This document shows positions 5,064-40,664 of a stretch of 64,000 nt of DNA, in pieces. Origin of the DNA: Camelus ferus (taxonomy: Eukaryota); assembly GCF_009834535.1 (NCBI RefSeq), contig NC_045696.1, positions 38,628,001 to 38,692,000 of the forward strand, read 5' to 3'. How positions within the stretch are numbered: position 1 is the stretch's first letter; each line of letters opens with the position of its first letter. The position numbers and the translations under genes were made by a program. A model generated the notes under the pieces. It worked only from the letters and a program-made list of their open reading frames with translations, searched no databases and was not told the DNA's origin.

Positions 5064-5188
5064 CACCTTCCCTGATAGGTATGGTAAGGAAGGACTGGGC
5101 ATCTCAAAATAGCATTGCCCTATCATGGCAAGCACCTGCTTTTTCCAATGGAGCCATACTGGACTACGAGATCAAGTACTATGAGAAA
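5064..5188 (+). CDS. EPHA6: EPHA6 internal coding exon (exon 6 equivalent), N-terminal half of the 2nd fibronectin type III domain
   Basis: Polypyrimidine tract ttttctttcctttcag (AG 5062-5063) and donor AAA|gtaggt (GT 5189-5190). 125 nt, phase 1 in, phase 0 out. Translates (A)PSLIGMVRKDWASQNSIALSWQAPAFSNGAILDYEIKYYEK, recognised as EphA6 FN3-2. Confidence 0.96.
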
Positions 5189-13213: not shown

Positions 13214-13346
13214 CCTTTTTTTTTTTTTTTTCTGTTGTGGGGAAGGTTATTAGGCTTTTTAATTTATTTAATGGAGGTACTGGGGATTAAGCCCAGGACC
13301 TTGTGCATGCTAAGCACTTGCTCTGCCACTGAGCTCTACCCTCCCC
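13214..13346 (-). mobile_element. Camelid Vic-type tRNA-derived SINE with target-site duplication
   Basis: Minus strand reads ggggagggtagagctcagtggcagagcaagtgcttagcatgcacaaggtcctgggcttaatccccagtacctcc (A/B-box like), then an A-rich body and poly(A). Flanked by the direct repeat ctctaaagtccgtaacattttaa at 13191-13213 and 13346-13368. Confidence 0.88.
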
Positions 13347-38010: not shown

Positions 38011-39801
38011 TTGAGCCCACCTGGGCAAATAAAGCAATCTAGATGGCTCTGTGGCAAAGCACTGTCTCTATCTGGTGATAGCTACTTTGATATGTCAGCA
38101 GAAAGGCCATTAGCCAAAGTTCCTAGACAGTAGAGCTTGAAAACAGCAGGAGAGAGGGCTGCTGTGCACTGGAAGGAAGGACTCCCCTGACTCTGCTTTC
38201 TGAGCTCTCTTTGGCCCTCTCAGAGGTGGGAATATGTAAGACAAGGCAGCAGCCACCATGCTGCTGTGATTTAGGTTGAGGAACCATGTAAGCACACTTC
38301 CTACTTAGTGATTTTTATTCCAGGGATGTAGCTACACATACACTTCTGTATAACAACAGACATGCCATAAGCTATTTGCAAAAGGTGTCCTTTGCTCCCT
38401 GTAACTTTACTGAGTAAGAAATTACTATTTAGCTATGTTTTTAGGTGAGGCAACCAAGATATAATGTGTAATTATTATGAGGCCATTCTGAGAGTAAATT
38501 TTTGAATCTGTATCTCCTCTCTTTAAGGATGAAATTAAATTCTTTTTGCAGGATTTTAAATGTCTCTTAGTCATAATTTTATATTATGAAGCACTATTCA
38601 AAGTACACCATAACTCTCATGTTGCAGAAAATTCTGGGAGAGGTGGAATATTCTCCTCTGGTATATGAGAATAAACAATCCAATAGTTTTTTGCAAATTT
38701 CTCCCACAAACAATATTATCTCTTCTAGTAGTACACATTTTTTTGTCCGCAATATGGATGTTAAGCCCTCTAATTATAGAGGCCTTGATCTTAGAAAGCC
38801 TCTTCTTTTAGCAGATAATGACTGCCATCAATGATTTTATAGACTTTATTTCATTGGATTTTATGGTAGGCAGATATTTATTTACTTTCTAATCTGAAAA
38901 TTACCTAGGGATAAATGTATGTTGCAATTTGTTTTGTCTTTTCTACTTAAAATGTTGCTATTGTTAATTCATTTATTACTTTGTACTTTGTGTTTAATAA
39001 ACAGTTCTATTTGGGGTATAGATGGGGAATTCAGTTACTCAATTGACACAGAATAAGTATCTAGCATATAAAGTTCTGACAAATAAAGGCCATACAGTTT
39101 AAAATTTATCTTTAAGAAAAGGATTCTTTTCTCAAAAATAGCTTAAGGGAAATTATTTTCATAGTTTTAAATCTTAAAGCATCACCAGTCAATAAATGCA
39201 GTTTGACACATTCTGCACGTGCATAGATTTTTATAACGTTATTTATTAGTCTGGAAAGTCTCTTGAACAACAGAGATTTTTCTGACAAAGGTGAAAATAA
39301 ATCCTGATGGGAATATTATAGATAGAATTTAAGGATCAAATCAGTAATTCAGTTAATGATCTTGTAAGTCACTTCCAGTTCTGAGAATCTCTGTCTTTAG
39401 ATTTGTAACTCAAGGGCGTGGTGGCCTAATTTGATCTATGAATTTAGAAGAGTTGTTCATAGAAATAAAGGGTTTTTTTTTTCAAATACCGTATTAAAAC
39501 ACCATTATAAAGTTACTGAACAATAACACTATACAAAAACAGTACTGAGTTTAATGTATCCCCACCACCAGCATATTGTGCACTGTCTCTTATGTGCACA
39601 GGTGAATTGTTCTGAGGTGGTGGACAAGACAGCCCACTTAAAAGACCCTGAATGACTAGAGTGTTCAGTTAGCTGTGGTTCCTGTTAGTGGGGAGAGATG
39701 GTCTGGCAGTTACTTGCAAGTGACTGGGAATTAAGCCTCCAGTCCTGCCTGATTTCCTGCTGTCTTTCATACCTTACTTTGTCTTCGATGTTTCTTCACA
39801 G

Positions 39802-39836
39802 ACAGACTGTTTCAAAATCCACCTCATAATCCCTAG
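39802..39836 (+). other. Candidate 35-nt alternative exon (frameshifting, or 5'UTR exon of a short isoform)
   Basis: About 57-nt AG-free pyrimidine-rich tract (39743-39799) ending tttcttcacag, and donor TAG|gtaact at 39837. Confidence 0.35.
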
Positions 39837-40048
39837 GTAACTTGTACCTCTTTACAAAAAAACTGTTGTCTTTGGGGGGGAGTCAATTTCCCCTCAAAGG
39901 AAAATTGTCATCGTTTTATGTCTAAAGTTGAATCAACTTCAGTTGTTACTGCTGGGGAATCACTGAGTTTCAGAACAAAGCAATTGATTCAGGATAAAAG
40001 ATTTCAAACGTTAAAAAACAATTAATTTATTTTTCCTTTCACCCACAG

Positions 40049-40096
40049 GTCTACCCACGGATAGCGCCGGCATTTTGGCACTACCTGCGGGTAGAA
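40049..40096 (+). CDS. EPHA6: Candidate alternative 48-nt cassette microexon of EPHA6 (VYPRIAPAFWHYLRVE)
   Basis: Acceptor ttatttttcctttcacccacag with a ttaat branch-point-like motif about 23 nt upstream, and donor GAA|gtgagt. Length is a multiple of 3, phase 0/0 as required, no stop codon, and 4 CpGs are retained in a CpG-poor intron. Confidence 0.72.
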
Positions 40097-40501
40097 GTGA
40101 GTAGCGGGTACTTGAATTCTCCCACCTTGCTCCTTGCACTCTGCTGGTGTGGTCTGATCCAGTGTGCCCATTTTGTCCAAGATGCAGCTGCCATTCTGTG
40201 TAAACGTGCTCTCACGCCACCACCATTCCTTAGAGTTGGATCAGAAATCCAAGGCACCACAAATACAAGTGCAGTTTATATAAGATGATCATCTTTCTTA
40301 GTAAATTTTCAAATCAAGACCATACCATGTGCATAGTAATTGGTAAATAAGTCAGTGCTAAATTATGGAAAACCATGCTTACACCACTTTTTGATCAGTA
40401 TTTTGAAAGTCAGAGCATAATTCCCCAGCTTAACTTTAGAATGTTTCTAGGAAAAAGTAGAATAACTGCTTCATTTCCTTTCTCGTCTTTTCTGTCCCCA
40501 G

Positions 40502-40664
40502 GAGCACGAGCAGCTCACCTATTCCTCCACGAGGTCCAAGGCACCCAGTGTCATCATCACGGGTCTCAAGCCAGCCACGAAGTACATTTTTCACATCCGG
40601 GTGAGGACTGCAACAGGATACAGTGGCTACAGTCAGAAGTTTGAATTTGAAACAGGAGATGAAA
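40502..40664 (+). CDS. EPHA6: EPHA6 internal coding exon (exon 7 equivalent), C-terminal half of the 2nd FN3 domain
   Basis: Acceptor ttttctgtccccag (AG 40500-40501) and donor GAAA|gtaagt (GT 40665-40666). 163 nt, phase 0 in (matching the upstream exon), phase 1 out. Translates EHEQLTYSSTRSKAPSVIITGLKPATKYIFHIRVRTATGYSGYSQKFEFETGDE, with the FN3 GLKPxTxY motif. Confidence 0.96.

Follow-up and report, generated by a model that had tools for sequence, protein, structure and literature searches.

Micro-exons of 51 nt or less are symmetric and conserved and lie in a surface turn of an interaction domain, as outlined in the portion of PMC4317164 considered here, and the 48-nt exon of EPHA6 that we describe resembles them in all of these respects. 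Among axon-guidance receptors, ROBO1 and ROBO2 have a conserved microexon (6b) that gives isoforms with different activity (abstract of PMC6687390), and the EPHA6 exon is conserved as well. Eph receptors, furthermore, are known to contact each other head to tail through an LBD-FN2 interface (excerpts of PMC8508685 and bioRxiv 10.1101/2021.04.11.439330), and the site at which the EPHA6 exon adds its residues falls within the segment aligned with that interface. The same exon at the same junction is also present in the RefSeq predicted isoforms XP_063577744.1 (orangutan X7), XP_005283717.1 (painted turtle X1), and XP_041439308.1 (Xenopus laevis X1), which are unstudied models with a peptide identical to the camel insert apart from positions 1, 8, and 16. 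The microexon is, therefore, already annotated in predicted gene models and is not new as an exon, which limits the surprise.

In the literature search, nonetheless, no study of this microexon, its hairpin, or its function was found, while structure catalogues and supplements may list the hairpin; the exon is hence known but unstudied, and its hairpin property looks unreported. EPHA6 was not found in the five searched supplements of PMC4317164 (file 1 being outside the search), nor in those searched of PMC8187152 (all but file 2) and PMC5989265 (all but files 13-15), and the part of PMC5828187 seen concerns a different EPHA6 splice event. We consider that the exon is best explained, with a probability of roughly 0.45, as a tetrapod-born cassette exon that arose from an inverted repeat, would be subject to both RNA and protein constraint, and may switch the pre-clustering of the receptor.

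The exon was examined in a window of camel DNA, that is, the whole stretch of 64 kb analyzed here, and the coordinates of its features are collected in Table 1.

Table 1. Features around the EPHA6 microexon, in positions of the window
Feature	Position	Strand	Remarks
EPHA6 constitutive exon, N-terminal half of FN3-2 (strands A, B, C)	5064..5188	+	ends in phase 0
Polypyrimidine tract and acceptor AG of the microexon	40030..40048	+	without UGC motif
Left arm of the weaker outer inverted-repeat extension	40039..40046	.	faces 40097-40104; 5 Watson-Crick, 2 A.C, 1 G.U
Cassette exon, 48 nt	40049..40096	+	phase 0/0; 16 aa into the C-C' loop of FN3-2
Predicted hairpin co-extensive with the microexon	40050..40095	.	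20 opposed positions: 15 Watson-Crick, 2 G.U, 3 A.C on +
Microexon donor site	40097..40104	+	also right arm of the outer inverted-repeat extension
Four YCAY words in 15 nt	40212..40226	+	downstream of the microexon
EPHA6 constitutive exon, C-terminal half of FN3-2 (strands C', E, F, G)	40502..40664	+	

The microexon is stop-free with the translation VYPRIAPAFWHYLRVE and is bordered by an acceptor AG at 40047-40048 and by a donor in which GAA is followed by gtgagt from 40097, the nearest AG before the acceptor being 48 nt upstream. The junction is in phase 0/0 because the upstream constitutive exon ends with a whole Lys codon and the downstream one begins with a whole Glu codon. The in-frame exon put forward in the preliminary description is thereby confirmed, and so is its distance of 405 nt from the downstream exon (intron 40097-40501). 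We also noticed that, when splice sites were scored with a rough matrix, the pair around the microexon was the best in 35 kb. Indeed, within the hosting intron of 35,313 nt it was the sole stop-free, in-frame candidate of 3-51 nt with such splice strength at strict and medium slack (four at loose slack), compared with 0, 0, and 1 candidates on the reverse strand (strict, medium, and loose) and 0 in the next 23 kb. The exon thus has the size (up to 51 nt), the multiple of three, and the canonical AG/GT borders of an alternatively spliced microexon, and both inclusion and skipping forms occur as predicted isoform pairs in 20 species, while its 48 nt exceed the 3-27 nt of the SRRM4-type neural class. 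We regard it as very probable that the EPHA6 microexon is a real exon.

The four CpGs of the exon had been presented in the preliminary description as retained in a CpG-depleted intron. The count and its uniqueness stand, since no other 48-nt stretch of this intron (CpG o/e 0.16) has four CpGs; their evidential weight is less than was held because the downstream constitutive exon has 5 CpGs per 163 nt and all four CpGs of the microexon sit inside the hairpin stem. CpG retention was therefore dropped as an independent sign of coding, the stem accounting for the CpGs.

In terms of splicing signals, a UGC just upstream of the acceptor is a feature of SRRM4-type neural microexons, and none was found within 90 nt upstream of the acceptor, the nearest upstream TGC being at 39950, 99 nt away. 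No TGCATG was present in 39749-40502. The YCAY words downstream of the microexon (Table 1) are what we take to be a NOVA-type motif.

Two further segments of the plus strand resemble exons of other EPHA6 models. The segment 36153-36233 resembles the N-terminus that is unique to isoform X13 of orangutan EPHA6 (57% of 28 aa, E 1e-4) and may be an internal first exon, which would lie some 3.8 kb upstream of the microexon. The segment 9254-9360 is homologous to an additional exon that the canid EPHA6 models P0009, P0371, and P0372 place upstream of the microexon, and it has an in-frame stop and a frame change in the camel window.

When EPHA6 proteins in the database were compared at the microexon junction, 292 of the 484 could be scored: 174 were skip forms and 110 had exactly 16 extra residues, while five had the 16 residues together with a further residue or modelled exon and three had unrelated inserts. 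The carriers include frogs, turtles, crocodilians, birds, squamates, monotremes, marsupials, and placentals up to orangutan. Both forms were confirmed in 20/20 species pairs, which were chosen by name for having both and of which one uses records common to two sea turtles. Every insert-bearing record that we saw is a predicted model, and neither human nor mouse was represented among the carriers found. Also, the two assembled full-length EPHA6 proteins seen (P0285 and P0287) are both skip forms, as is the human EPHA6 segment in Table 2 of PMC8508685. The earlier statement that canonical EPHA6 lacks the peptide and that predicted isoforms may contain it is thus borne out by this human segment and by the 110 of 292 proteins, and the comparison of the peptide across vertebrates follows it from frogs to apes.

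Conservation was examined in 44 distinct FN3-2 sequences, which came from 92 full-length rows of 99 and were not picked by peptide. Thirteen of the 16 insert positions are invariant, the only variable ones being position 1 (V, A, D), position 8 (A, P), and position 16 (E, D). Pairwise identity was 95.3% for the whole insert and 99.4% for its positions 2-15 versus 92.3% and 94.2% for the flanking exons; the whole insert is just slightly more conserved than its neighbors. At the protein level, the downstream FN3 exon matches camel, reindeer, and hippo sequences with 100% identity.

The junction varies in other ways as well. Gerbil models P0019 and P0021 have an unrelated 25-residue insert there with no match in the window. 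Seven bird models (P0304-P0309 and P0111) are without the first three residues of the downstream exon (the counterpart of 40502-40510), which suggests in birds a second acceptor 9 nt inside this exon that would also change the C-C' loop. Several insert-bearing mammal models (P0022, P0031, and others) skip the whole first FN3, so that inclusion of the insert can coincide with a shorter ectodomain. Inserts of paralogues at the same junction, inspected in 48 of 150 representatives, are mutually unrelated and look like retained introns, and the ESM Atlas gave no usable match.

Outside tetrapods, 75 EPHA6 proteins with shark, ray, chimaera, coelacanth, gar, sturgeon, or teleost names were examined with the skip form as the query, and none of the 65 that could be scored has the insert; the sequences seen are without lungfish, salamander, and caecilian, and a model that lacks the exon need not mean that the genome does. 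Orthologous DNA of the tetrapod microexon was not found among 16 loci, the single EPHA6 locus there being fish-like (L001); in its 1.4 kb upstream, neither a similar peptide (best score 25 vs 92 for self) nor a comparable hairpin was found. The exon is therefore likely to have originated in tetrapods or near the tetrapod ancestor. Since frogs share the peptide, furthermore, the capacity for the hairpin fold would be as old as the exon.

This hairpin, which extends over the whole exon, was missed in the preliminary description. When the exon is folded alone, a single stem of 17 pairs closes over a 6-nt loop (40070-40075) and is interrupted by three 1x1 mismatches, all A.C and one per 4 nt (40057:40088, 40061:40084, and 40065:40080). 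When plus-strand 48-mers were scanned across the 64 kb in steps of 2, none had a lower energy than this exon, at -24.6 kcal/mol. Only 1 of 2000 dinucleotide shuffles was as stable (z -4.8), while nine control windows in the flanking exons gave z from -1.8 to +0.9, and the mean pair probability remained 0.95-0.98 with flanks of 30-200 nt. The underlying 20-bp inverted repeat is the longest such repeat in the window, where no second copy of it was found, and all five of its departures from a perfect repeat are transitions. The peptide is itself palindrome-shaped, the best fold that it can attain being -37.3 kcal/mol versus -27.8 or weaker for 25/25 shuffled peptides. Occlusion of the splice sites was considered as a distinctive feature and rejected, as the upstream constitutive donor is predicted to be paired equally or more at two of three flank sizes. 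Two intronic stems upstream of the microexon, 39562-39623 (-26.9) and 39870-39899 (about -22 kcal/mol per 70 nt), exceed the 1st percentile of the intron (-19.9) but are short, the best nearby stems having about 13-20 bp.

Because the exon is a predicted hairpin, protein constraint cannot be taken as the sole source of its peptide conservation. Of the variable residues, position 1 corresponds to the terminal pair, position 8 to the loop, and position 16 to the overhang, and the nucleotide changes that yield them alter the fold by -1.9 to +1.6 kcal/mol versus a median of 1.95 for all non-synonymous changes, which is a modest signal. On the other side, 31 of 100 non-synonymous single changes would be neutral or stabilizing for the fold and yet were never seen, including four transitions that would perfect the stem; this indicates protein constraint beyond RNA structure and counts against a reading by structure only.

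If only the nucleotide sequence were constrained, the peptide would be frozen as well, and it is rather unlikely that the selected unit is non-coding, namely an antisense hairpin (miRNA-like or regulatory) or a sequence-constrained palindrome, with the exon as a low-level passenger. Indeed, the minus strand folds better than the plus strand (-31.1 vs -24.6, and -39.5 vs -27.8 with 10-nt flanks), since A.C turns into G.U there; also, the inverted repeat reaches into both splice regions, and residues change just at unpaired or terminal positions, with V, A, and D tolerated at position 1. A non-coding unit, however, would hardly account for the exact length of 16 residues in 110 proteins and for both splice points being kept from frogs to mammals, nor for the invariance of the loop residue F9, which is unpaired. 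The stem of about 25 bp is furthermore short for a canonical pri-miRNA, and no Rfam family matched the hairpin at the gathering threshold. The single Rfam match in the window lies elsewhere and is tRNA-like (13272-13343 on the minus strand, 44 bits); it was not called by ARAGORN and is followed by an A-rich tail, a tRNA-derived SINE being its most probable identity. On the minus strand, the antisense frame that is in register with 40049-40096 is likewise free of stops, as a palindrome predicts.

Alternatively, the hairpin might serve ADAR as an exonic substrate in the manner of the Gabra-3 I/M stem, a reading that we consider unlikely but compatible with our main explanation. Editing at the mismatches would give I5V and H11R (that at P3 being silent) and would in each case make the stem tighter; I5M would result from editing of adenosine 40063, which is in a UAG context. 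As in the A.C-mismatch duplexes expected of such substrates, all three internal mismatches of the predicted stem are A.C at every 4 nt. A-to-G changes there have a computed gain of 5.4-6.7 kcal/mol, and two of the mismatches are kept even though silent transitions gaining 4.7-5.4 kcal/mol could remove them. ADARs favor 5' U/A and 3' G neighbors and disfavor 5' C or G, whereas the mismatched adenosines are in the contexts CAC, GAT, and CAC, and adenosines in UAG occur just at the paired positions 40063 and 40093. Against editing, moreover, the stem is short, the residues V5, M5, and R11 are absent from the 44 distinct sequences, and random transitions would be expected to produce the observed 3:2 ratio of A.C to G.U. 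A stem formed by the exon only is indeed edited in Gabra-3, but a similar A.C stem in Gabra-1 is unedited without a long inducer stem (both from the portion of PMC3479170 considered here), and the stems nearby in EPHA6 have only the lengths given above. An extended version, in which A-to-I editing at the spaced A.C mismatches would lock the stem, alter inclusion, recode the loop, and switch EphA6 between pre-clustered and dispersed states, is in our view improbable; if true, editing and splicing would jointly switch the state of EphA6 at its head-to-tail contact surface.

It is also improbable that the exon is an ordinary neural loop microexon, as originally described, in which selection acts on the peptide alone and the hairpin was left over from a palindromic origin or came about by chance. 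Conserved surface-loop microexons are a known class (PMC4317164 and PMC6687390, each in part), and the geometry of the exon lends this some strength: codon k opposes codon 17-k, so that second codon positions pair with each other, and of the eight pairs fixed on both sides by residues, seven are paired. Part of the stem would thus survive by protein constraint alone. Synonymous choice is nonetheless hard to reconcile with selection on the peptide alone, as only 7/5000 (uniform) or 9/5000 (GC-matched) synonymous re-encodings are as stable as the actual exon, and third positions should have drifted over tetrapod history.

Far less credible is a tethered pseudo-ligand docking in the ephrin pocket of a neighboring Eph receptor. 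In its favor, the insert starts with [V/A/D]-Y-P-x-x-A-P, which resembles A-Y-P-x-x-V-P, the core of YSA peptides that bind EphA2 (PMC7345574, Table 1); just 0.2% of random 16-mers contain Y-P-x-x-x-P; and the insert site lies opposite the neighbor's ligand-binding domain in other Ephs. The likeness was, however, picked post hoc from many known peptides, rests on three to four residues, and places Glu at the first aromatic of YSA, and the sequence is already explained by the palindrome. An annotation artefact, in which a conserved intronic element is modelled as an exon and copied between gene builds, would agree with the predicted status of all insert-bearing records and with the propagation that predicted isoforms can undergo between genomes but is very improbable given the best splice-site pair in 35 kb, the constant length and open frame across tetrapods, and the isoform pairs in 20 species.

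At the protein level, AlphaFold2 models keep the seven strands and their register whether or not the insert is present, match the FN2 of EphA4 and EphB2, and let the insert loop out between strands C and C' with a short helix, though at low confidence (pLDDT 57-63 for the insert block vs 88-96 for the core). The proposed location in the C-C' loop of FN3-2 with the frame preserved is thus supported. Replacement of strand C' by the insert was not seen, as the registers are equal in both forms, though a gapped alignment favors such a result. In the EphB2 structure 7S7K, the junction comes after chain residue 458, which is K476, and no insert at the junction is present among the aligned solved Eph FN2 structures. 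The EphB2 interface residues Q472, Y473, E480, Y481, and N482 flank this point (PMC8508685, in the part considered), and the EphA2 head-to-tail interface uses N483-R485 (bioRxiv 10.1101/2021.04.11.439330, likewise), which we place 7-9 residues after the junction by matching residue types in Table 2 of PMC8508685. [quoted passage not shown]

Two other roles had been suggested for this domain at the outset, namely in membrane and in cis ephrin interactions, and neither fares well at the insert site. The EphA2 membrane-binding residues listed in the consulted part of PMC4744086 lie outside the insert segment, and cis ephrin binding via FN2 is disputed (bioRxiv 10.1101/2025.07.31.667925, in part). 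A membrane-anchor role of the insert was rejected on the same residues and on its Wimley-White sum of just -0.5 kcal/mol. A predicted complex of the EphA6 LBD with the insert-bearing FN3-2, run without alignment and without folded controls, scored 0.02, which speaks neither for nor against binding. In the literature examined, no head-to-tail contact shown for EphA6 was found. By analogy with EphB2 and EphA2, nonetheless, EphA6 may make head-to-tail contacts and the insert may alter them.

In our preferred reading, a short inverted repeat would have been exonised in or near the tetrapod ancestor to become a cassette microexon of EPHA6, and the exon would carry two codes, a surface loop peptide and an RNA structure. 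The RNA code is computed, in that the exon can fold from base 2 to base 47 and the camel synonymous codons fit this fold; judging from one genome and the protein conservation, the hairpin would be kept by selection and would help set the frequency of exon inclusion. The protein code, from alignment and model, consists of 16 residues put into the C-C' loop of the membrane-proximal FN3 with the strand register unchanged. The two isoforms would differ in how they pre-cluster in the absence of ligand and hence in signaling threshold, and the shift may go in either direction, since head-to-tail contact inhibits EphB2 and primes EphA4. A natural splice switch kept from frogs to mammals would make the question of pre-clustering testable with two cDNAs differing by 16 residues. 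Furthermore, a hairpin that takes up the whole exon, together with a palindrome-shaped peptide, would be a compact example of how an inverted repeat gave rise to a coding exon, and the same exon would be a case of overlapping RNA and protein constraint.

Compared with the described systems, the EPHA6 exon differs from the micro-exons of PMC4317164 (as far as its available text goes) in having no RBFOX motif nearby and in that the body of the exon is itself a hairpin. ROBO1/ROBO2 6b is regulated by NOVA, and the EPHA6 exon is followed by YCAY words; the function and regulation of 6b have been tested, and the abstract of that report (PMC6687390) makes no mention of an exon-wide hairpin. Like the EPHA6 stem, the Gabra-3 I/M stem is formed wholly by exonic coding sequence, and its Ile adenosine is edited to give Met; exon 9 of Gabra-3 is, however, constitutive, longer than its stem, and served by a long intronic inducer (PMC3479170, in part), whereas editing in EPHA6 is a prediction. 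Finally, EphB2 tunes its head-to-tail patch by a glycan and tyrosine phosphorylation, whereas the candidate means in EphA6 would be splicing, which is not described in the excerpts of the EphB2 work considered here.
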